The notes beneath the pieces are model-generated. The model was not told the origin of the DNA, made no database searches, and was given only the letters and a program-made list of their open reading frames with translations. From the IMG/VR virus record IMGVR_UViG_3300044551_000118: 32,397 nt of DNA. The stretch is one strand, 5' to 3'. This DNA is from a virus (Duplodnaviria; Heunggongvirae; Uroviricota; Caudoviricetes). Positions within the stretch are counted from its first letter, which is position 1. Each line of letters starts with the position of its first letter. Shown here in pieces: positions 7,901-28,640 of the stretch. A program made the position numbers and the translations under genes.

Positions 7901-8718
7901 GCATCAGAGGCAAGATCGACGATGTATGGCGCGCCTACAAGCTGTTCCGCGTGCTCGGCTCGATGGGCGTCGGGCTGGGCGCGCTGGGGCTCGGGGGGCT
8001 GGGCACGTGGGGAGCGAGCGTCTGGCGCGGGCATGTCGTCAGGGCCACGGACAGCCCCGAGTACATGACCAATCAGACCACCGCGCCGGACGCCACGGTC
8101 GCGCCCGCGCCGAAGCTGCCGTTCTCATGGGGCGCGTTCCTGTCCTCGAACGGAATGAAGACCGTCGTTGCGCTGCTCGTGCTCACCATCATCATCTGGG
8201 CCGTCGCGCACTGGCCCATGAAGCGGCCCAACAACCCGTTCAAGCGCGACGAGCGACGGGAGTTCTCCAAGGCCGACCGGGCATGGATAGGCGAGTGCGC
8301 CGACCACCGCTGCGAGCACCGATACTGCTTCGGGCTGCTGCGCTGCGGATGGCGCGAGGGGGACGACGGCAAGACCGCACAGCTGGACCACTGGTACCCG
8401 CACTCCAAGGGCGGCGCCACCGACCGGCACAATCTCGTCTACCTGTGCCCGAAGCACAACAACCGCAAGTCCGCCCACGTGCCCACCGTCTGGGCCACGC
8501 GGGCGCTGGAGCGGGCGCGGCTCAAGTACTTCCCGGCCCGCTGGCGCGCCTACGCGCGGCCCGACGGCATCGACCATCGCATGGACGAGCCGGACATCCC
8601 GAAGGACGAGCCGAAGGCGCCGATCGAGGACATGGACGCCGAGCGCGCGCCATGGGAGGACGACGAAGAGGACGACTACCGGGACGCATTCCGGGGCTAT
8701 GACGACGAAGAAAACTAG
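7897..8718 (+). CDS. Membrane-anchored HNH endonuclease (273 aa)
   Basis: Two hydrophobic segments, then RCE...C...QLDHWYPHSKGGATDRHNLVYLCPKHNNRKS, an HNH motif with zinc ligands. Confidence 0.85.
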   Translation: MSIRGKIDDVWRAYKLFRVLGSMGVGLGALGLGGLGTWGASVWRGHVVRATDSPEYMTNQTTAPDATVAPAPKLPFSWGAFLSSNGMKTVVALLVLTIIIWAVAHWPMKRPNNPFKRDERREFSKADRAWIGECADHRCEHRYCFGLLRCGWREGDDGKTAQLDHWYPHSKGGATDRHNLVYLCPKHNNRKSAHVPTVWATRALERARLKYFPARWRAYARPDGIDHRMDEPDIPKDEPKAPIEDMDAERAPWEDDEEDDYRDAFRGYDDEEN

Positions 8719-9625
8719 CCTGTTCGCGCTCGCCCCGCTGCTTGCGGGAGCGCTCCTCACAGCCGCTCCGGTCCACGCCGAGGCGGCTTCCGTCCGCTCG
8801 GGGGCAGACGGCGGCGCGAGCGCCGTGCAGGCCCATCGGAAAGCGCTGTCCGATGCCCAGACGCGACTGGCGAAGGCGGACGAGGCGCTGGCGGACGCCC
8901 GAGCCAGAGTCAAGGATGCGATGGGCGACCGGTCCGCATCCAAGCAGTCCCTTCAGGCTCTGGGCAGAGCGGCGCAGGCGGCGGACGGGGCGATGGATGC
9001 CAGTCCCGCGCCCACCGGCTTCCAGCTCTTCCGAGGGGCGGCGCAGCCCGCCTCGTTCCGCGGCGACATCGATGCGGCGGACGCCCGCGCCAAGGCCGAG
9101 AACGATGCCGCGAGTGCGCTGACGAAGGCCGCTCGGGCGGTCGCGGACTCCCATCCCGTGCAAGTAGTGCCGCAGGGCGCCCAAGCCCCGCAGAGTGCCG
9201 TTTCCGGCCCGATTCAGGGCACGTACGCGACGCGGGCGCAGAACGCCCCCCAGTCGCAGCCCCCCGCGCCCGCGCAGCCGCAAGTAGCCACGCTGGATGT
9301 CACCTCCGCCACCACCTGCTCCGACTCCGCATGCGCCCAGAGCGCGGTGGACGCCGGGGGAGCGGCGTACATCGACTACTCCGGCTCCGGCTCCGGCTCC
9401 GGCTTCTCTGAGATAGCCGGGCATTCGGGAGGCGCGGCGGGCCTCATCGCCTCGTTCGCGCCCGGACAGACTGTGCGCACGACGGGGGCGCTGCCGGGCC
9501 TATGGCGCATCACGGGGCTGAGCGACATCCCGCTGAACGCCCGCGCCATACCATCCGGAGGGTTCGCATTTCAAACCTGCGTGGGCAACGTGCTGCGGCT
9601 GGCCTACGCCACCCGCATCGGCTGA
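8699..9625 (+). CDS. Secreted coiled-coil protein with a C-terminal sortase-fold domain (308 aa)
   Basis: Sec signal with AxA site, Ala-rich coiled coil, Pro/Gln linker, then IAGH...FQTC...R matching the sortase His/Cys/Arg triad. Confidence 0.65.
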   Translation: MTTKKTSLFALAPLLAGALLTAAPVHAEAASVRSGADGGASAVQAHRKALSDAQTRLAKADEALADARARVKDAMGDRSASKQSLQALGRAAQAADGAMDASPAPTGFQLFRGAAQPASFRGDIDAADARAKAENDAASALTKAARAVADSHPVQVVPQGAQAPQSAVSGPIQGTYATRAQNAPQSQPPAPAQPQVATLDVTSATTCSDSACAQSAVDAGGAAYIDYSGSGSGSGFSEIAGHSGGAAGLIASFAPGQTVRTTGALPGLWRITGLSDIPLNARAIPSGGFAFQTCVGNVLRLAYATRIG

Positions 9626-9633
9626 ACGCCGCA

Positions 9634-9679
9634 TGCGAAAGGCCCGCCGCCGGAATCATCCGGCGGCGGGCCTTTCGCA
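9634..9679. terminator. Perfect 21-bp stem inverted repeat
   Basis: TGCGAAAGGCCCGCCGCCGGA-ATCA-TCCGGCGGCGGGCCTTTCGCA. Confidence 0.8.
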
Positions 9680-10135: not shown

Positions 10136-10342
10136 GAGACAGGACGCATTGAGAGGGTGCTTCGATGCCCCGGCTCGCCACGTACACCCAAAGGACAATC
10201 GGCATCAGAGCATCCTCCTTTCCGGTCGACGCCAATCTGCCGACGCATAGGGCGACATGTCAAGCGAAAAACCTTTCGCGGGGCATGCCGCCCTTCTTGT
10301 TGATAGACGGCATCAAGAAGCAAGAACCGAAAGCAGGACATC

Positions 10343-11122
10343 ATGCCGCAGGAAACCAACAGCAAGCGCACCTTCATCACAGAGAACCTCACCATTCCGA
10401 ACGCGCGGACCCAGTGGGCCATCCGCCTGTTCACGCCGGACACGGAGGGGCAGTACGCAGACGGAAAGTACTCCGTCATCCTCCTCATCGACAAGTCGGA
10501 TACGGAGACCGTCGCCGCCATCCGCAAGGCCATCGCGGAGGACATCAAGAAGGCGATCGAGGCCAAGCTGCTCGACGGCCCGGCCACTGTACAGTACGTC
10601 CAGCGCGTGAACGCCGGCGACTATGACGAGGATTTCGCCTATCCGCTGCACGACGGCGACCTGGCTACCAAGACTGACAAGGAGACCGGAGAGCGGGTCC
10701 TCCGCAAGGATGCAGGCGAGCCCGAGCTGGCCGGCCACTGGTACATCACCGCCAAGTCCGCAAAGAGGCCCCGCATCTACTCCGCGCTGGCCGTGCAGTA
10801 CGACCTGAACGACCCCGCGCAGCTCGACAAGGCGAAGTCGGACATCTACTCCGGCTGCCGCGTGAACGCCCGCGTGACCTTCAACGCCTTCGGCCCGTCC
10901 CGCGCCGTGCGCGGCGGCGGCGTGGGCGTCTGGCTCAACGCGGTGCAGAAGTTCGCGGACGATGAGCGGCTGGGCGGAGGCCCGGTCGACGACGGATTCT
11001 CGCCGGTCGCCGGCGCGGTCGCCAACACCGACGGGTTCGCTCCCGCCGGAGCGCAGGCTCCCGCAGCCGACAGCGAGCCGAGCGCGGACGCCGATGCGAT
11101 CTACGCCGCCCTCGGGGTCTGA
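10343..11122 (+). CDS. DUF2815 / Enc34-type (T7 gp2.5-like) single-stranded DNA-binding protein (259 aa)
   Basis: Characteristic motifs KYSVILLIDKSD, PLHDGD, GHWYITAKS, IYSGCRVNA and GVGVWLNAVQKFADDERLGG, plus a flexible acidic tail. Confidence 0.9.
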   Translation: MPQETNSKRTFITENLTIPNARTQWAIRLFTPDTEGQYADGKYSVILLIDKSDTETVAAIRKAIAEDIKKAIEAKLLDGPATVQYVQRVNAGDYDEDFAYPLHDGDLATKTDKETGERVLRKDAGEPELAGHWYITAKSAKRPRIYSALAVQYDLNDPAQLDKAKSDIYSGCRVNARVTFNAFGPSRAVRGGGVGVWLNAVQKFADDERLGGGPVDDGFSPVAGAVANTDGFAPAGAQAPAADSEPSADADAIYAALGV

Positions 11123-11138
11123 CAGCCGACAGCCAAGC

Positions 11139-11188
11139 GAGAACCCCCCGCCGCAGGTCCTGTGAAAGGATCGGCGGCGGGGGTTCTC
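11139..11188. terminator. Inverted repeat after the SSB gene
   Basis: GAGAACCCCCCGCCG...CGGCGGCGGGGGTTCTC, imperfect long stem. Confidence 0.7.
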
Positions 11189-11230
11189 CGTATCTAGGAC
11201 GCATGCCGCTCGTAAACGAAAGGAAGCGTC

Positions 11231-11368
11231 ATGGACAGCATCGCCGATATAGCCGAGGAGCAGTGCTTCGGGCCTGTGGAGACGAAAGCGCTGGCGCTGG
11301 CGGACGCCGCGTCGGTCATGCTGGGCGAGGAGCCGCTATGGCTGATCGACCTTAAGGCCAAGGCATGA
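11231..11368 (+). CDS. Small acidic hypothetical protein (45 aa)
   Basis: SD GAAAGGAAG; MDSIADIAEEQCFGPVETKALALADAASVMLGEEPLWLIDLKAKA; ATGA overlap with the next ORF. Below the ORF-track cutoff. Confidence 0.6.
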   Translation: MDSIADIAEEQCFGPVETKALALADAASVMLGEEPLWLIDLKAKA

Positions 11369-11649
11369 GGGGCGTCCGTCTCGTCGCGGCTCTCGCCGCC
11401 GTCTCATGCCTCTCCAGCTGCGGGGGGCGGGTCGCCGCGCAGCCATTCATCAAGCTCGCCCCGTCATGCGTCAGGACGACAGCTGCGGCAAACGTTTACT
11501 CGTCCGACGAGGGGCTGGCACAGCTGCCAGATGTCTGCAATCCTATACTGCCGCTGGGCGATGCCGACGACAACGAGTGGGGGGCGAGAAGACGACCTGA
11601 AGCCATGCGCCTGGCAGGATGCAGTCGCTCCTTCGGGAGCGTGGATTGA
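11365..11649 (+). CDS. Small putative lipoprotein (94 aa) whose stop codon lies inside the solitary CRISPR repeat
   Basis: MRGVRLVAALAAVSCLSSCGG lipobox-like start, translationally coupled; the TGA is within GGATTGAAAC. Confidence 0.55.
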   Translation: MRGVRLVAALAAVSCLSSCGGRVAAQPFIKLAPSCVRTTAAANVYSSDEGLAQLPDVCNPILPLGDADDNEWGARRRPEAMRLAGCSRSFGSVD

Positions 11650-11652
11650 AAC
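11624..11652 (+). CRISPR. Solitary type I-C-like CRISPR repeat unit (not an array)
   Basis: GTCGCTCCTTCGGGAGCGTGGATTGAAAC has the I-C signature: 5' GTCGC, a hairpin (CGCTCC-TTCG-GGAGCG) and 3' GTGGATTGAAAC. No second repeat at spacer distance and no cas operon. Confidence 0.8.
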
Positions 11653-11680
11653 CCGCAAGAGCTGATCTGACGTTCAGCCC

Positions 11681-11729
11681 ATACGGCAAGGCCCTGCGAA
11701 CGCTTGACGTTCGCGGGGCCTTGCCGTAT
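11681..11729 (+). terminator. 22-bp hairpin 28 nt downstream of the solitary repeat (terminator or RNA 3' end)
   Basis: ATACGGCAAGGCCCTGCGAACG-CTTGA-CGTTCGCGGGGCCTTGCCGTAT, one U-G wobble. Confidence 0.7.
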
Positions 11730-11820
11730 AGCATTGCACGGGACGCATTGCCATCGCGAACAGCGCCATAGGGCGAACCGCGTCCGGAAGCGGACGCAAG
11801 AACGAAAGGAAAGGGCCTTC

Positions 11821-12243
11821 ATGACCGAAATCTGGAACACCATCGAGGACACGCCGAGCGAAATAGGAGCCAAGGAGTTCCGCCTGCGCGCCTCTCATGT
11901 CATCAAGGCGCTCGCGCAGGTCGACCAGAGCTGGGCAGACAATGCCGCACAGCGGCTCAAGGGCTCCGAGATCGACGATGGGCGGGACTGGGTGCACCCG
12001 CTCGACCGCACCATGCTCCACGTCTACGAGCTATGGCTGCTTGAGCACGACGGCGTGAGGCAAAGCCGCCACCCCGGCGCATGGATCTCGGCGGACGGGC
12101 TGATGAATCTGGGCGGCGACACGCAGGAGTCGCTGGAGGAGGCGCAGGCCATCGCCGATCAGGAGCATCGTCTGGTGCGCCTGTGGATGCGTCATCCGGG
12201 TGCCGTGCCCGGGGCCTTCGGGCTCTTCGCGCCGAGCGAGTGA
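11821..12243 (+). CDS. Hypothetical acidic protein (140 aa)
   Basis: SD GAAAGGAAAGG before ATG 11821, typical codon bias, flanked by hairpins. Confidence 0.8.
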   Translation: MTEIWNTIEDTPSEIGAKEFRLRASHVIKALAQVDQSWADNAAQRLKGSEIDDGRDWVHPLDRTMLHVYELWLLEHDGVRQSRHPGAWISADGLMNLGGDTQESLEEAQAIADQEHRLVRLWMRHPGAVPGAFGLFAPSE

Positions 12244-13594: not shown

Positions 13595-16186
13595 TCAGAC
13601 GTGATGCAGCGGGCAGTTCGTCGTGATGCCGGACATCTCGCACGCCGAGGTCACGCACGTGCAGAAGTCGCTGGGACTGGTCCTCCAGTGGCGCTCGGGC
13701 ACGGCGTCGTAGAGCCGCCGGTACTCGCGATCAATCCACTCCTGGGACTTGTGGAACTTGGCAGCGATTCCCCCGATGCTCAGGGCGTGATCGCGCATCG
13801 GCTTGTGGGTGTCGCCCTTGGTCATGGGGGGGATGTCCAGCGGAGCATCCCGTCCGCCCTGCGCCATGGCCGCATCGGGGATGACGTAGGGAGCATCCTG
13901 CCCCACTGGCGTGAATCCGTCGATGTTGCCCTTGCGGCTGTCGAGCTTCGGATCGTAGGCGTTATGCACGGCGGCCATCGGCTCCGCGGGCGCCGGGGCG
14001 CCCTTCGAGCCGGGCTTGAGCATGCCGACCGAGCCAAGCCACCCGACCATCGCATCGCTCATCGTCGCCACCTGGGAGTCGTCGGCCACGCGGTAGTCGC
14101 CGGACTCCTCCCCGTTGTCCATGTGCGATCCGGGGGCCAGGACATAGCCCTCGCGCTCGCACCGGGTATCGATGTGGAAGCCTCCGATATGGGTGTTGGT
14201 GACCACATGCACGCCCTCGGGGAGGCGGTAGTAGGCGTGGACGCCGCCGCTCGGGGTGCGCGTCAGGAACGTCTTGGGGAAGTCGAGCGTCCCGTATTCG
14301 CCGATCGTCCTCTCGAAGGAGTCCCAGCCGTTCTCGTCGGCGTACTTGGAGCCGGATCCCTTGGCGTCCATGTCGAAGTCGAGCACCGCGAAGCCGTCAT
14401 GAGGCACGCACGCCCATGCCGCGGCGTTCTGCGGCGGCTTGGGGAGGTGCGGGTTCCTCGCCTTGTTCTCGTTCTGCCAGCCGTAGCATGACTTGTCGAG
14501 GTTCGCCCGCACGTAATGGCATCCGAAGCCACGCTCGTCAGGGTTCGTAGCCACGCCGTCCAGCGGTTCGGGCGGGGGAGTGGGCGCGTCGTTCTCGATC
14601 TGGGCCATCACGTACTTGCGGAAGTCGGAGAATCGGTCCTCGTCCTCGACGACGTAGACGCTGACGCGATTGCCATCCACGGTTTTCTGCTTCGACTTGA
14701 GCCCGAGCTTGCTGATGGCGTTGGTCTTGTCGCTCTGGCTGGGCCGGTATGGGTTGTCCGGGTTGTAGACCCAGCCGCGGGCTATGATCTCGGAGACCAT
14801 CCACTGCTCGGCATCCGTGAGCATGTCGGGACGGTTGATCTGCACCTTCCTGATTTCCGCCTCGCCGGGCGTCCCCTCCTCGAACCACGCCTGGCACGAG
14901 CGCATGATGAAGCCGTCCGCGCCGAATTGGGAGATGAACGCGCGCATGAGGTCGAAGTCCTTCGCCTTGCGCCCGTCCTTCATGCGCACGAAGACGAAGC
15001 GACGCTTCATGGAATCGTCCATCGAGGTGACGAACGAGAGATTGGTGGCGATGGACAGCGTGGCCTCGGGGCGGAAGGTGACCATGTCGTGGCCCAGGCG
15101 CCGGGCGTTGAGCCCGTCGCCGGTCGAGAGCTTCTTCAGCCGCTCGGTCTGCTGCGCGGACAGGCTCCCCGCATCCTCGTCGAAGGCCCACATCCGCCCG
15201 ATGAGCTTGGCCGGCTCCTGCTCCAGCACCGTGGAGGACACCTTCGCCCCGCCGGTCAGGTTCACCGCATCTACGGTCGTCGCCAGCGAGCGGGTGCTCC
15301 GCCCTTTGACGAAGGCGTTGAAGAACGTCCCCTTGCCGTTGCCTCCCTCGCCCGCCAGCACGAAGGTCTTCTCCTTGAACTGCTGCAGGAACGGCGCGGC
15401 GGGAAGATACTCCAGATTGTGCAAGCTCTTGGCGTCGTCGGTGATGTCCTGCATGAAGTGCCGCGCATGGAGCACCAGCCTCTCCTCGAAGTCGCGATCG
15501 ATGCTCAGCTCGAAGGGATCGCTGAACACGGCGTCCCCGGGCCTGAAGATGCAGGGCTTCTCCCTGAGCCCCGGCTCCGCGTACCAGCAGTACGCCTTGT
15601 TCGCGAAGCGGATGCCATGCCTGATGCGCAGCGGGCGCCCGTCGAAGGTCACGAGCTTGGCGCATTCGATCTTGAGCAGCCGATCCCACTCCGTCTTCGA
15701 CTCGGCGGAGCGCACATCGTAGCAATCCGCGAGCGAGGCGATGGCGGTCCATGACTCCAGGCGCCTCATGCCCATATAGTCCACGTCGCGCACGAACAGC
15801 ACCCCCGTCTCCGCGTCGTCGCCCTTGAGCACGATGTCGCCGTGCTTGAAATCCCACAGGGCCTGCGCGTACCCGAAGGGCACCAGCATCTCGGCCTCGC
15901 CCTTGGATGTCTGCCTGCGGGGCACGACGACCTCATTGCCCACGCGATCGGTGAAATCGCCCTGCCTGCCCTGCTCGGCGAGACGCAGCCCGTCATACGT
16001 CGCCTGCACGTTGCGCGGCATGCGCGGCATCGCCGCGAACTGCCATGTGTCCAGATTGTTGGGATCCATCGCCCGACTCCTTTTCAGCTTGTCTGCAATG
16101 CCTATATGCGTCGGCGCAGAAGCAGGGAGGGAATCGACGGATGCAGGAGTGCGCTCGAACGGGAGGAGTGTGTCGAATTCGGGCAT
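13595..16186 (-). CDS. Replicase: SF3 (D5/P4-like) helicase fused N-terminally to a bifunctional primase-polymerase domain (863 aa)
   Basis: Walker A GEGGNGKGT, Walker B AFDED, motif C IATN, then Prim-Pol motifs AVLDFD, TRTPSGGVHAYY and IDTR...GYVLAPGS. Confidence 0.9.
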   Translation of the reverse strand: MPEFDTLLPFERTPASVDSLPASAPTHIGIADKLKRSRAMDPNNLDTWQFAAMPRMPRNVQATYDGLRLAEQGRQGDFTDRVGNEVVVPRRQTSKGEAEMLVPFGYAQALWDFKHGDIVLKGDDAETGVLFVRDVDYMGMRRLESWTAIASLADCYDVRSAESKTEWDRLLKIECAKLVTFDGRPLRIRHGIRFANKAYCWYAEPGLREKPCIFRPGDAVFSDPFELSIDRDFEERLVLHARHFMQDITDDAKSLHNLEYLPAAPFLQQFKEKTFVLAGEGGNGKGTFFNAFVKGRSTRSLATTVDAVNLTGGAKVSSTVLEQEPAKLIGRMWAFDEDAGSLSAQQTERLKKLSTGDGLNARRLGHDMVTFRPEATLSIATNLSFVTSMDDSMKRRFVFVRMKDGRKAKDFDLMRAFISQFGADGFIMRSCQAWFEEGTPGEAEIRKVQINRPDMLTDAEQWMVSEIIARGWVYNPDNPYRPSQSDKTNAISKLGLKSKQKTVDGNRVSVYVVEDEDRFSDFRKYVMAQIENDAPTPPPEPLDGVATNPDERGFGCHYVRANLDKSCYGWQNENKARNPHLPKPPQNAAAWACVPHDGFAVLDFDMDAKGSGSKYADENGWDSFERTIGEYGTLDFPKTFLTRTPSGGVHAYYRLPEGVHVVTNTHIGGFHIDTRCEREGYVLAPGSHMDNGEESGDYRVADDSQVATMSDAMVGWLGSVGMLKPGSKGAPAPAEPMAAVHNAYDPKLDSRKGNIDGFTPVGQDAPYVIPDAAMAQGGRDAPLDIPPMTKGDTHKPMRDHALSIGGIAAKFHKSQEWIDREYRRLYDAVPERHWRTSPSDFCTCVTSACEMSGITTNCPLHHV

Positions 16187-21709: not shown

Positions 21710-21755
21710 GCAAAAGGCCACCTGCCGAATCCCAATTCGGCAGGTGGCCTTTTGC
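21710..21755. terminator. Perfect 21-bp stem bidirectional terminator
   Basis: GCAAAAGGCCACCTGCCGAAT-CCCA-ATTCGGCAGGTGGCCTTTTGC, with A and T tracts on the two sides. Confidence 0.85.
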
Positions 21756-21974
21756 ATTGACGGGCAGCTGCGCCGGGGCAGCGTTGGATGAACGCACGTG
21801 AACTGGGCGCAATCGTCTGTCATGCCGTTATATGCGTCCGCAGACAAAAGGAGGAGGCCATGCGGTCCGTCTTCCCGCGCGAACGCGATGGAAGGACCAC
21901 ATGGCCTCTTGAGGGCGCCGCATCGCGTCTTGGGCTTGCGGACAAGACCTTGGAGCTTCGCGGCTGGAACGATG

Positions 21975-22139: not shown

Positions 22140-22224
22140 GCCCGTCACATGCGTCTCTGGATGCGGAGCGGCGGCCCTCCGGACGTATCCGGAGGGCCGC
22201 CGCTCTCGTGAGTCCCGCGCGCCG

Positions 22225-26636: not shown

Positions 26637-27035
26637 CGATGTTCTGAACGCGGGCCATGGCGACGGCGCCGCCAGCTCGAAGCCCAGATCGAGGCCGACT
26701 GCGAGGCACCACGCGGCGAAGCGCGCGCCTCCCGTGCGTCCGTCGAGCAGCCATCCCATGTCGGCTTTCGCGGGATTGACTTCCGTTTCGCACCATGTCG
26801 CCGCCCGTTCGATGCGCCGGAGCGCGGCGATCCGACCGGTGCCGAAGATCGCCTGATCGGCCATCCACACGTGCAATGAGAGCAGCGCGGGGTCCGCCAT
26901 GCATCCCTCGACTAGCCGGGGCAGGCAGCGCGAGCCGTCGCTCGCGGACAGCGCGCGCAGTTCGGCGAGCATCGCTCCGCGCCGCGCGGCTGCGGCGGAT
27001 CGCGCCGCCGCCGCGTCTACTTGCGATGGAACCAT
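26628..27035 (-). CDS. Putative mIHF-like (H2TH) DNA-binding protein (135 aa)
   Basis: Real start is probably ATG 27035. AAAARRGAML...DPALLSLHVWMADQAIFGTGRIAALRRIER resembles actinobacterial IHF AAAARRERA...KMKVSALLESLPGVGKVRAKQIMER. Confidence 0.5.
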   Translation of the reverse strand: MVPSQVDAAAARSAAAARRGAMLAELRALSASDGSRCLPRLVEGCMADPALLSLHVWMADQAIFGTGRIAALRRIERAATWCETEVNPAKADMGWLLDGRTGGARFAAWCLAVGLDLGFELAAPSPWPAFRTSSY

Positions 27036-27802
27036 GAGCGCTTCTCGGGTGCCTTGAAGTCGTCGCGCCGTCCGCCCGCGAACACGGCGGCGCGCCGCAG
27101 CCAGTCGGGCTCGGCGCCCGCGTCGTAGCCGGGCCTGCGCGCGTCGAGCATCTTCGCGGATGCCTCGTCCCACACGTCCGAGCCGCCCCACATGCCCATG
27201 CCGTCGAGCAGACGCTCCCAGCTCTGGTCGGAGTGGGGCTTCAGCACTCCCGGCACCTGGGCGACGACCAACGTCTGGCTCGGTCGGCGGATGGCGTCCA
27301 GGGCCGCGAGCCCGTCGTCGAGCTGGGAGCCGGTCTGGCCTATCTTGAAGACGATGCGGGCGCCGCCCGACTGCACGAACGGGCGCATGACGCCGCCTGC
27401 GAACGTGGCGGGGTCGTTCCATGTGGAGCCGTCGACGCGGTCGGCGTCCACTATCACGATGTCGCACGCGCCGCGGAGCGCCACGAGCGAGGAGCCGTAC
27501 AGGTCGTTGATGCCGGGCGCGCGCGGCTCCAGAGGGCCGGGGAGCAGTGCGAAGGACGCTCCCGTGCCGCCGGCGCCGGGGCGGATCCATGCGGCCTTGA
27601 GTCCCTTCACCGCGGCGCGCTCCAGCCCCGCGCTGTCGCCCAGTGCGAGGAAGGCGCGCTGGGACTGCTGGCCCGGATTGCCGTCGACGAGCACGGTGCG
27701 AAGGCGCGTGCGCCCCAGCGCCTCGGCCACAGCCCGCGCGCTGGAACTCTTGCCCAGCCCGCCTGAGCCGCCTGTGAAGAATGTGATGGGAGCGCTTGTC
27801 AT
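27017..27802 (-). CDS. ParA/MinD/CpaE-family P-loop ATPase (261 aa)
   Basis: GGSGGLGKSS Walker A, VLVDGN A' and IVIVDAD Walker B. No SD; CGCATA 10 nt before the ATG. Confidence 0.8.
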   Translation of the reverse strand: MTSAPITFFTGGSGGLGKSSSARAVAEALGRTRLRTVLVDGNPGQQSQRAFLALGDSAGLERAAVKGLKAAWIRPGAGGTGASFALLPGPLEPRAPGINDLYGSSLVALRGACDIVIVDADRVDGSTWNDPATFAGGVMRPFVQSGGARIVFKIGQTGSQLDDGLAALDAIRRPSQTLVVAQVPGVLKPHSDQSWERLLDGMGMWGGSDVWDEASAKMLDARRPGYDAGAEPDWLRRAAVFAGGRRDDFKAPEKRSWFHRK

Positions 27803-27865
27803 GCGCTTGGCCTATGCGCCTGTAAAACCCCGTTATGCGCTCGTGCGTGGTTTGGACCCCTTGAT

Positions 27866-28640
27866 GGGATTATTGATTTATTGTTTATGTTTGATTTCAT
27901 GTCTGTTTGTTGCTGATTTGCTGTTCGTGCTGATTGTCTGTTTATGCTGTTTGATTTGTTCATGCTGTCTCTGTCTGTGCTGTCTATGTCTGTGCTGTCT
28001 ATTTTTGATTCGTTCGTTTTATGCCGTCTGTTGCTGTATTGCGTCTATGTGTTTCGTTTGTTGATTGCTTACGTGTGTTATGTGCGTTTCTGTTTGTTGA
28101 TTGCTTACGTGTGTAGTGGGAGATTTTTTCTTTTTGGCTTGTGCTTGCTTTGGCTAGGTATGTATCTGTTTGTTGATTGCTTGCTTTGGCTTTCCATGTT
28201 GAAGTGTGTTTTTGCTTGTGTGTGTTCTGTATTGGCTGTCTGTCTTTGCTCGGCTTTGGCTAGGTATGTATCTGTTTGTTTTTGCTTGCTTTGGTTTAGG
28301 TTATGTATGTTGCGTTTTCGATTGCTTGCGTTTGGTTAGGTTGATTATGTTGCGTTTGTCTTTGCTTGCCTTGGTTTAGGTTATGTATGTTGTGTTTGTC
28401 ATTGCTTGCTTTGGGTATGCTGCTTGCGTTGTTCCTTAAGTGTGCTGATGTTCTTCTTTAGGTATGTGCTTGAGATTGATCTTGAGGTTGTCTTCTGGAG
28501 TTCTCTGTGTTCTTCTTTATGAGGTTTTCTTTGAGCGTCTTTCTTTGCGTTCGTTTCTTTTTAGGTTTGCCAAGGGTGCTTTCGTTTTAGGGTTGCCAGG
28601 GGTGTTTTCTTTTCCTCTTCGCTTTCCGTTTGCGTTCGTG
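27866..28640. repeat. Non-coding, low-GC, extremely T/G-skewed tract with nested direct repeats (candidate centromere, iterons or oriT region)
   Basis: 23-bp exact pair at 28056-28078 and 28092-28114; 28-bp exact pair at 28147-28174 and 28253-28280; 32-bp pair at 28281-28312 and 28361-28392 with a degenerate copy between them; TGCTTGC core recurs about 7 times. Confidence 0.85.

Follow-up and report, generated by a model that had tools for sequence, protein, structure and literature searches.

A solitary type I-C CRISPR repeat unit on a large mobile element, tentatively read as a crRNA decoy

CRISPR-derived RNA units carried by mobile elements without cas genes have been described in several forms. 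A Bifidobacterium prophage carries RacrIC1, a single type I-C repeat positioned 11 nt behind an acrIC5 homologue; the two are transcribed together, and RacrIC1 allows phages to grow again when type I-C targets them (PMC10651486). Solitary repeats of this subtype from viral genomes are given by the hundreds in table entries of the same paper (PMC10651486). The Cracrs are defined by a spacer-like stretch (psiS) that matches host CreR/CreA or a promoter over at least 9 PAM-proximal bp (10.1101/2024.10.29.618823), and partial pairing lets both Cracrs and host crlRNAs direct Cas complexes to promoters (10.1101/2024.10.29.618823; 10.1101/2024.12.27.630466). In the Nezha crlRNA, the 3' end is located inside the loop of a hairpin (bioRxiv 10.1101/2024.12.27.630466).

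Characterised type I-C repeats are 32 nt long and fold into a 2-nt overhang, a 7-bp stem, a 5-nt loop and an 11-nt 3' overhang (PMC8524198). Cas5c reads the base of the stem, the U-G-G right after the cut and the 3' overhang, and reads neither the loop nor the 5' overhang; its cut leaves an 11-nt handle, and loop changes are reported as tolerated (PMC8524198). The mature crRNA consists of this 11-nt handle, a spacer of ~33 nt and a 21-nt 3' stem-loop (PMC8524198).

Here we analyzed a solitary repeat unit in a 32,397-nt stretch of DNA, referred to as the window. An earlier sequence-only reading had described a single 29-nt repeat followed by 28 nt and a 22-bp stem, and the sequence from 11624 to 11729 is arranged exactly in this way. 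The features of the locus are collected in Table 1, in which the repeat is termed psiR and the 28-nt stretch psiS; genes were picked by codon-position GC.

Table 1. Features of the solitary repeat locus and its surroundings, in window coordinates
Feature	Position	Strand	Details
ssb (Gp2.5-like)	10343-11122	+	PHROG 112, E 9e-32; PF10991
Hairpin closing the ssb unit, 3' of the ssb stop	11139-11188	+	15-17-nt arms, one bulge; read from the sequence
Promoter-like box	11197-11205	+	GGACGCATG; 26 nt ahead of the 45-aa gene; putative unit start
Gene for a 45-aa acidic protein	11231-11368	+	pI 4.05, GC3 0.83
Gene for a small lipoprotein	11365-11649	+	signal peptide, lipobox LSSC; 94 aa in the window copy
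Solitary type I-C CRISPR repeat (psiR)	11624-11652	+	GTCGCTCCTTCGGGAGCGTGGATTGAAAC; GU, 6-bp stem, UUCG loop, 11-nt handle
28-nt spacer-like stretch (psiS)	11653-11680	+	weak internal 5-bp hairpin, z -1.9
22-bp hairpin with 5-nt loop	11681-11729	+	21 Watson-Crick pairs and one G-U; -44.2 kcal/mol, z -10.6
Second promoter-like box	11741-11749	+	GGACGCATT; 12 nt past the 22-bp hairpin; starts the next unit
Gene for a 140-aa acidic protein, separate downstream unit	11821-12243	+	pI 5.05, GC3 0.81
Helicase/prim-pol gene, convergent	13595-16186	-	family match

The 29-mer is present in a single copy in the 32.4-kb window when up to 3 mismatches are allowed, and shuffled sequences are expected to contain none. 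Folded in isolation, it has a 2-nt overhang, then a stem of 6 bp rather than 5 that is closed by a UUCG loop, and an 11-nt tail, UGGAUUGAAAC; the energy is -10.6 kcal/mol. Both ends of the repeat, GTCGC on the 5' side and the 14 nt on the 3' side (GCGTGGATTGAAAC), recur unchanged in the 17-repeat array of a Burkholderiaceae MAG (G002), where the array shares a contig with cas8c. A scan of GTDB representative genomes for the 29-nt form, in which the stem and loop positions were left free, returned 12 loci, including a true 18-repeat array (L001) and variant repeats in ordinary arrays (L005, L006, L008, L011 and L012); both ends of the window repeat are identical to those of the arrays in L001, L005, L006, L011 and L012. 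By its sequence, then, the 29-mer is a genuine type I-C repeat, with a resemblance far beyond chance. Every position reported for Cas5c recognition (stem base, UGG and 11-nt handle) is intact, and the assignment to type I-C with an 11-nt handle made by the sequence-only reading holds. Compared with the canonical 32-nt repeat, the 29-nt window repeat has one stem pair fewer (6 bp) and a tetraloop in place of the pentaloop, with both overhangs kept. The published specificity places the predicted Cas5c cut between G11641 and U11642.

We found no second repeat: aligned locally with its 200-nt flanks, the repeat scores at best 12 against a random-window mean of 14.8. No cas family was found among the 29 ORFs scanned in the window; the repeat is therefore a solitary unit and not part of an array, in agreement with the earlier description of it as solitary and free of a cas operon. 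The exact 29-mer is absent from IMG/VR and from the GTDB representative genomes, and the metagenome collection gave loop variants only. A search of the locus against Rfam returned nothing at gathering level, with sub-threshold matches limited to a partial CRISPR-DR9 and chance miRNA-like matches on the hairpin.

Two trivial explanations were set aside. A chance resemblance to a CRISPR repeat was rated low, with 0 shuffle matches and both ends identical to array repeats. A decayed array was also rated low, given an alignment to the 200-nt flanks under the random mean. The earlier note had itself raised the remnant of a longer array; the flanks hold no trace of one.

The 22-bp hairpin had been proposed to stand in place of a second repeat, and for this part of the sequence-only reading an alternative is preferred here. 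Long hairpins are also found 3' of other genes of the element, at 9634-9679, 21710-21755 and 22166-22205. Together with the hairpin that closes the ssb unit, these are 15-21 bp long, GC-rich, mostly perfect and placed directly after stop codons, and in several of them the layout is A-rich/GGCC...GGCC/T-rich. They probably serve the element as terminators at gene boundaries. The other hairpins begin 8-19 nt past the stop codon, while the hairpin at 11681 begins 80 nt past it in intact relatives, and 57 of those 80 nt are the repeat and the 28-mer. The 22-bp hairpin is better read as one of these gene-boundary hairpins, and it probably terminates the unit and caps the 3' end of a crRNA-like product. 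It should be noted that the hairpin has no U tract and that a simple terminator scan finds nothing, the T run being missing, so termination at this site is not assured.

Upstream of the repeat, the ATG of the lipoprotein gene overlaps the stop of the 45-aa gene. The 45-aa protein has no family (Pfam, PHROG) or PDB match and no relatives outside the lineage, and its AF2 model shows three short helices (pLDDT 75). The lipoprotein has no homologues beyond its own cluster and no Pfam, PHROG or PDB match. In the window copy the lipoprotein gene runs into the repeat. Three near-identical contigs (L013-L015) have one base that the window copy lacks (a C inside the G run at 11579-11584; alignment A1), and in these contigs the lipoprotein is 78 aa long, with a stop that corresponds to window positions 11598-11600, 23 nt before the repeat. 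The overlap of gene and repeat is therefore due to a 1-nt deletion that shifts the frame (78 to 94 aa); judged from this alignment, the deletion is a real mutation or an assembly error, and the overlap is not a design feature. Downstream, the 140-aa protein has no family, PDB or homologue match outside the lineage and no relatives in IMG/VR, and its AF2 model is poor (pLDDT 47). None of the neighbouring proteins matches a known anti-CRISPR by Pfam, PHROG or PDB searches. The co-location of acr genes with Racrs is frequent but not obligatory.

A possible start of the unit is given by the box GGACGCAT, which has 10 copies in the window against 2.07 expected, a five-fold excess that no shuffle reached. 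The copies are located at 8682, 10142, 11197, 11741, 20327, 25749 and 29731 and, on the minus strand, at 21832, 23363 and 23610. Related CGCATA boxes precede many genes and lie 8-10 nt ahead of several start codons. From their number and placement, the GGACGCAT and CGCATA boxes resemble a promoter signal of the element itself, in many cases on leaderless genes. The box at 11197 precedes both genes of the unit and lies 427 nt ahead of the repeat; no sigma-70-type promoter match was found for the unit. The repeat has the same orientation as the flanking genes (+). On this arrangement, the simplest reading is a single transcription unit that would comprise the box, the 45-aa gene, the lipoprotein gene, the repeat, the 28 nt and the terminator hairpin.

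The genes around the unit, namely a Gp2.5-like SSB, a prim-pol/helicase and, farther out in the window, DnaN, a ParA-like protein and a PD-(D/E)XK nuclease, suggest a mobile element; a DUF2637 protein is also encoded in the outer part of the window, and three small minus-strand ORFs are among the genes in the surroundings of the unit. In the replicase, the helicase domain (DUF5906, residues 277-396) precedes the Prim-Pol domain (residues 594-709), the reverse of the usual order, and the same helicase-then-Prim-Pol order is seen in relatives L013 and L017. Upstream of the ParA-like gene (27017-27802, minus strand) there are ~800 bp (27860-28640) of T+G-rich, A-poor, repetitive, non-coding sequence, with a GC content of 0.50 and an AT skew of -0.58; these repeats are a candidate centromere or origin.

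Three contigs, a JGI contig of 209,659 bp (Ga0455833_0053) and two shorter ones, encode a 96%-identical ssb, and in all three the sequence of the repeat, the 28 nt and the hairpin is unchanged (alignment A1). Among the four carriers, 0/106 positions vary within the unit against 5/388 around it, a difference that is not significant, and the carriers are so nearly identical that this conservation says nothing on selection. No relatives were found in IMG/VR through the ssb and the 140-aa protein, and homologue searches returned only the near-identical copies and two distant ssb relatives (~50% identical) without the unit. The genes upstream of ssb are common to both distant relatives. In L017, one of the two, the primase is shared as well; there, ssb and primase are only 229 nt apart, and the gap has an ordinary terminator and contains neither the repeat nor a homologue of the small genes. 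This places the repeat in a lineage-specific island of 2.47 kb that lies between ssb and primase in the window.

Weak protein links connect the element with a Corynebacterium phage (ssb), a Bifidobacterium phage (primase), and a Streptomyces plasmid and an Arthrobacter phage (DnaN), and the nearest DnaN clusters in the ESM Atlas are mostly viral. These links to Actinomycetota phages and plasmids, together with the mostly viral DnaN clusters, point to a large mobile element, probably of at least about 210 kb, whose host is probably actinobacterial. The stem of the window repeat recurs in solitary repeats of Isosphaeraceae, which prompted the idea of a planctomycete host; no close relative of the primase was found in 301 genomes of the planctomycete phylum, and such a host is not supported. 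Spacers in the arrays of the compared loci gave only chance 15-22-mers against the element.

We tentatively favour, with a probability of about 0.42, a functional solitary repeat unit that acts as a Racr-type decoy, a crRNA look-alike that would occupy the Cas proteins of a host type I-C system. In this model, transcription would run from the GGACGCAT box at 11197 through the two small genes and the repeat and stop at the 22-bp hairpin, and host Cas5c, to judge from its published specificity, would recognise the stem base, the UGG and the 11-nt tail and cut at G11641/U11642. The resulting 88-nt 3' product (11-nt handle, 28 nt and the stable hairpin) would have the layout of a mature type I-C crRNA, with a shorter spacer and a foreign hairpin. 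It could keep Cas5c on the handle and, by analogy with RacrIF1 and RacrIC1, recruit Cas7 and Cas8c into a short, non-targeting Cascade-like particle that would draw Cas proteins off real crRNAs. The co-transcribed 45-aa protein and the lipoprotein might, more speculatively, be further anti-defence factors. The decoy is supported by the intact Cas5c determinants, the orientation matched to the genes, the bounded accessory unit and the location in a mobile-element island, as well as by the absence of a second repeat or a decayed array. Counting against it are the distance of 427 nt between the repeat and a box whose promoter function is putative, and the lack of a known acr neighbour.

The main rival to the decoy is a guide of the Cracr or crlRNA type, which we consider doubtful. 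In this case psiS would pair partially, beside a TTC PAM, with a host promoter or a rival element; the promoter could belong to a cas operon, a CreT-like toxin or another defence, and Cascade would bind it without cleavage and repress it. The succession of psiR, psiS and a non-repeat 3' hairpin is exactly that of the Nezha-regulating type I-C crlRNA (bioRxiv 10.1101/2024.12.27.630466) and also that of the V-A CracrVA1, and type I-C Cracrs have been reported in viruses and plasmids (10.1101/2024.10.29.618823). A unit that is alike is found next to host cas genes in an Isosphaeraceae MAG (G001), where at locus L023 (contig C56) a repeat at 8917-8930 on the minus strand is followed by ~32 nt and a hairpin, ~1.3 kb from cas8c (10284-11975). 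From its sequence, this latter unit has the form expected of a host cas-regulating crlRNA, with the same anatomy as the window unit. The short 28-nt guide of the window unit would, moreover, favour binding without cleavage by Cas3.

Against a guide, psiS has a small hairpin of its own and no target for it was found. The sequence-only reading had seen no convincing match to the 28-mer in the window, and our searches found no seed or full match there or in related loci; there was no match in IMG/VR (with every sixth base free) or in the phage and plasmid collections, and five genomes, four of them with cas8c, gave no match above control. The same reading had left the choice between decoy and guide open: the anatomy indeed fits both, and both correspond to published type I-C classes, but the search for a 28-mer target brought up none. 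A decoy needs no particular sequence 3' of the handle, so the anatomy does not separate it from a guide.

Next in our ordering, and unlikely, is a neutral relic, in which a repeat with part of a spacer was captured by recombination from a host array, or the last piece of a mini-array was left behind, without function. The carriers of the unit do form one closely knit lineage only, neither a psiS target nor a known acr neighbour was found, and the frameshifted ORF that runs into the repeat in the window copy suggests weak constraint nearby. However, the functional positions of the repeat are perfect whereas its loop and stem are remodelled to a compact UUCG hairpin, which is not the pattern of random decay. 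The repeat also has the correct orientation and a tidy place within a bounded unit, its 200-nt flanks contain no degenerate repeat, and no array with the exact 29-mer was found in IMG/VR, the GTDB representatives or the metagenome collection.

Solitary and mini-array forms of type I-C repeats were also found in five genomes, four of which encode Cas8c (PF09709, E 1e-172 to 1e-191). The Isosphaeraceae MAG (loci L021-L036) has 17 dispersed solitary type I-C repeats on 16 contigs; it carries cas8c and no array was seen. The Burkholderiaceae MAG (loci L037-L045) has 8 solitary repeats in addition to the 17-repeat array on its cas8c contig. Most of the solitary repeats in both genomes lie just upstream of a start codon (0-22 nt), a position that hints at Cas5c or Cascade sites in mRNA leaders. 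In the Burkholderiaceae MAG, the 8 repeats of loci L037-L044 end, rightward, a conserved module of ~115 nt in which TTCATCTAAAAC and a CCTCCCCC/GGGGGA hairpin come ahead of the repeat; judged by sequence, this module resembles a small dispersed element with a type I-C repeat at its end.

Other forms were seen elsewhere. Mini-arrays of two type I-C repeats are present in a Bacillota MAG (L007, 3573-3645) and in a Desulfovibrio MAG (L009, 970-1043), both of which encode Cas8c; each mini-array is followed by 20-40 nt and a U-tract terminator, and both are candidate crlRNA genes. A 1.2-kb metagenome contig (L018) carries, at 549-577, a solitary type I-C repeat with the stem of the window repeat and a CCGC loop, ~170 nt upstream of a Phage_lysozyme gene (751-1050; PF00959, E 5.5e-8), and therefore in a phage context.

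The leader repeats bear on an improbable reading, in which the window repeat is a Cas5c-dependent RNA switch: cleavage would part the two-gene mRNA from its terminator hairpin, and whether the 45-aa protein and the lipoprotein are expressed would depend on an active host type I-C system. The repeat does sit in the 3' UTR of the operon, ahead of a stabilising hairpin, and the abundance of solitary type I-C repeats in the mRNA leaders of the Isosphaeraceae and Burkholderiaceae MAGs, both with cas8c, hints at a wider use of Cas5c sites in mRNAs. On the other hand, the cleaved mRNA would still end in the stem-loop of the repeat itself, so destabilisation is not obvious, and we found no precedent in the cited papers on Racrs, Cracrs, crlRNAs and Cas5c. 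A related proposal, which we regard as no more probable, is that the 3'-UTR repeat serves as a sensor of host type I-C activity, its cleavage both setting the fate of the mRNA and releasing a short-guide Cascade particle capped by the terminator. If this were true, the element would use one RNA to tie the expression of its genes to whether the host has a CRISPR system, and the mRNA-leader repeats of the two cas8c-bearing genomes would represent the same kind of Cas5c-dependent control on the host side. The weakest explanation, that the repeat is the end of a small dispersed MITE-like element inserted at the locus, is very improbable: families of this kind exist, such as the eight copies of the ~115-nt module in the Burkholderiaceae MAG, but the window has one copy only in 32 kb, its flanks are unique and without similarity to those modules, the end of the lipoprotein coding sequence lies directly upstream, and the exact repeat occurs nowhere else in IMG/VR, the GTDB representatives or the metagenome collection.

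Since type I-C Racrs, Cracrs and single-repeat crlRNAs have already been published, the principle is known and the window unit is a clean new example of it; its modest peculiarities are the minimal UUCG hairpin, the probable use of an operon terminator as 3' cap and the orphan island around it. If active as a decoy, the unit would be a compact type I-C RNA anti-CRISPR, with a 29-nt UUCG repeat, from a little-known family of high-GC mobile elements of very large size, and the 2.5-kb island that separates ssb from primase would be a place to seek new anti-defence proteins. The minimal hairpin would also help to define the smallest RNA that Cas5c accepts.

Among the known systems, the mini-CRISPR arrays of viruses are likewise CRISPR-derived units on mobile elements without cas genes but hold a spacer between two repeats (PMC11656645); the window unit has no second repeat, and no protospacer was found for it in related or other elements. 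With Cracrs it has in common a psiR and a psiS on a mobile element and a probable terminator as in the V-A case, and it would, like them, compete for Cas proteins (10.1101/2024.10.29.618823). It differs from them in that its psiS has no match of the defining kind in five genomes, IMG/VR, phages or plasmids, and in that it has one repeat, whereas type I Cracrs are often arrays with two or three spacers (10.1101/2024.10.29.618823). The likeness to the Nezha crlRNA extends to the one repeat-like unit, the Cas5c cut (predicted for the window unit) that leaves an 11-nt handle, the spacer-like stretch and the non-repeat 3' hairpin (10.1101/2024.12.27.630466). The Nezha unit, however, is part of a host cas operon, and an adjacent promoter contains its 16-bp TTC-flanked target, whereas the window unit is on a mobile element, away from cas genes, and the Nezha product of 48-50 nt compares with at most 88 nt predicted for the window unit, or ~63 nt if it were trimmed in the loop.

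RacrIC1 differs from the window unit in several details. It is 34 nt long with one change in the handle (GGATCGAAAC), whereas the window repeat has 29 nt, a perfect handle and a UUCG mini-hairpin, and the gene upstream is an AcrIC5 homologue in RacrIC1, while no AcrIC5 homology was found in the window by the searches run. The exact window repeat is not among the SRU table entries of the Racr paper that were compared (PMC10651486). The two nonetheless agree in their general plan: both are single type I-C repeats on a mobile element with no cas genes nearby, both keep the hairpin and the handle (PMC10651486), and in both the repeat follows a small protein gene within a few nucleotides, 11 nt in RacrIC1 and 23 nt in the intact relatives of the window, and is co-transcribed with it in RacrIC1 and probably in the window.
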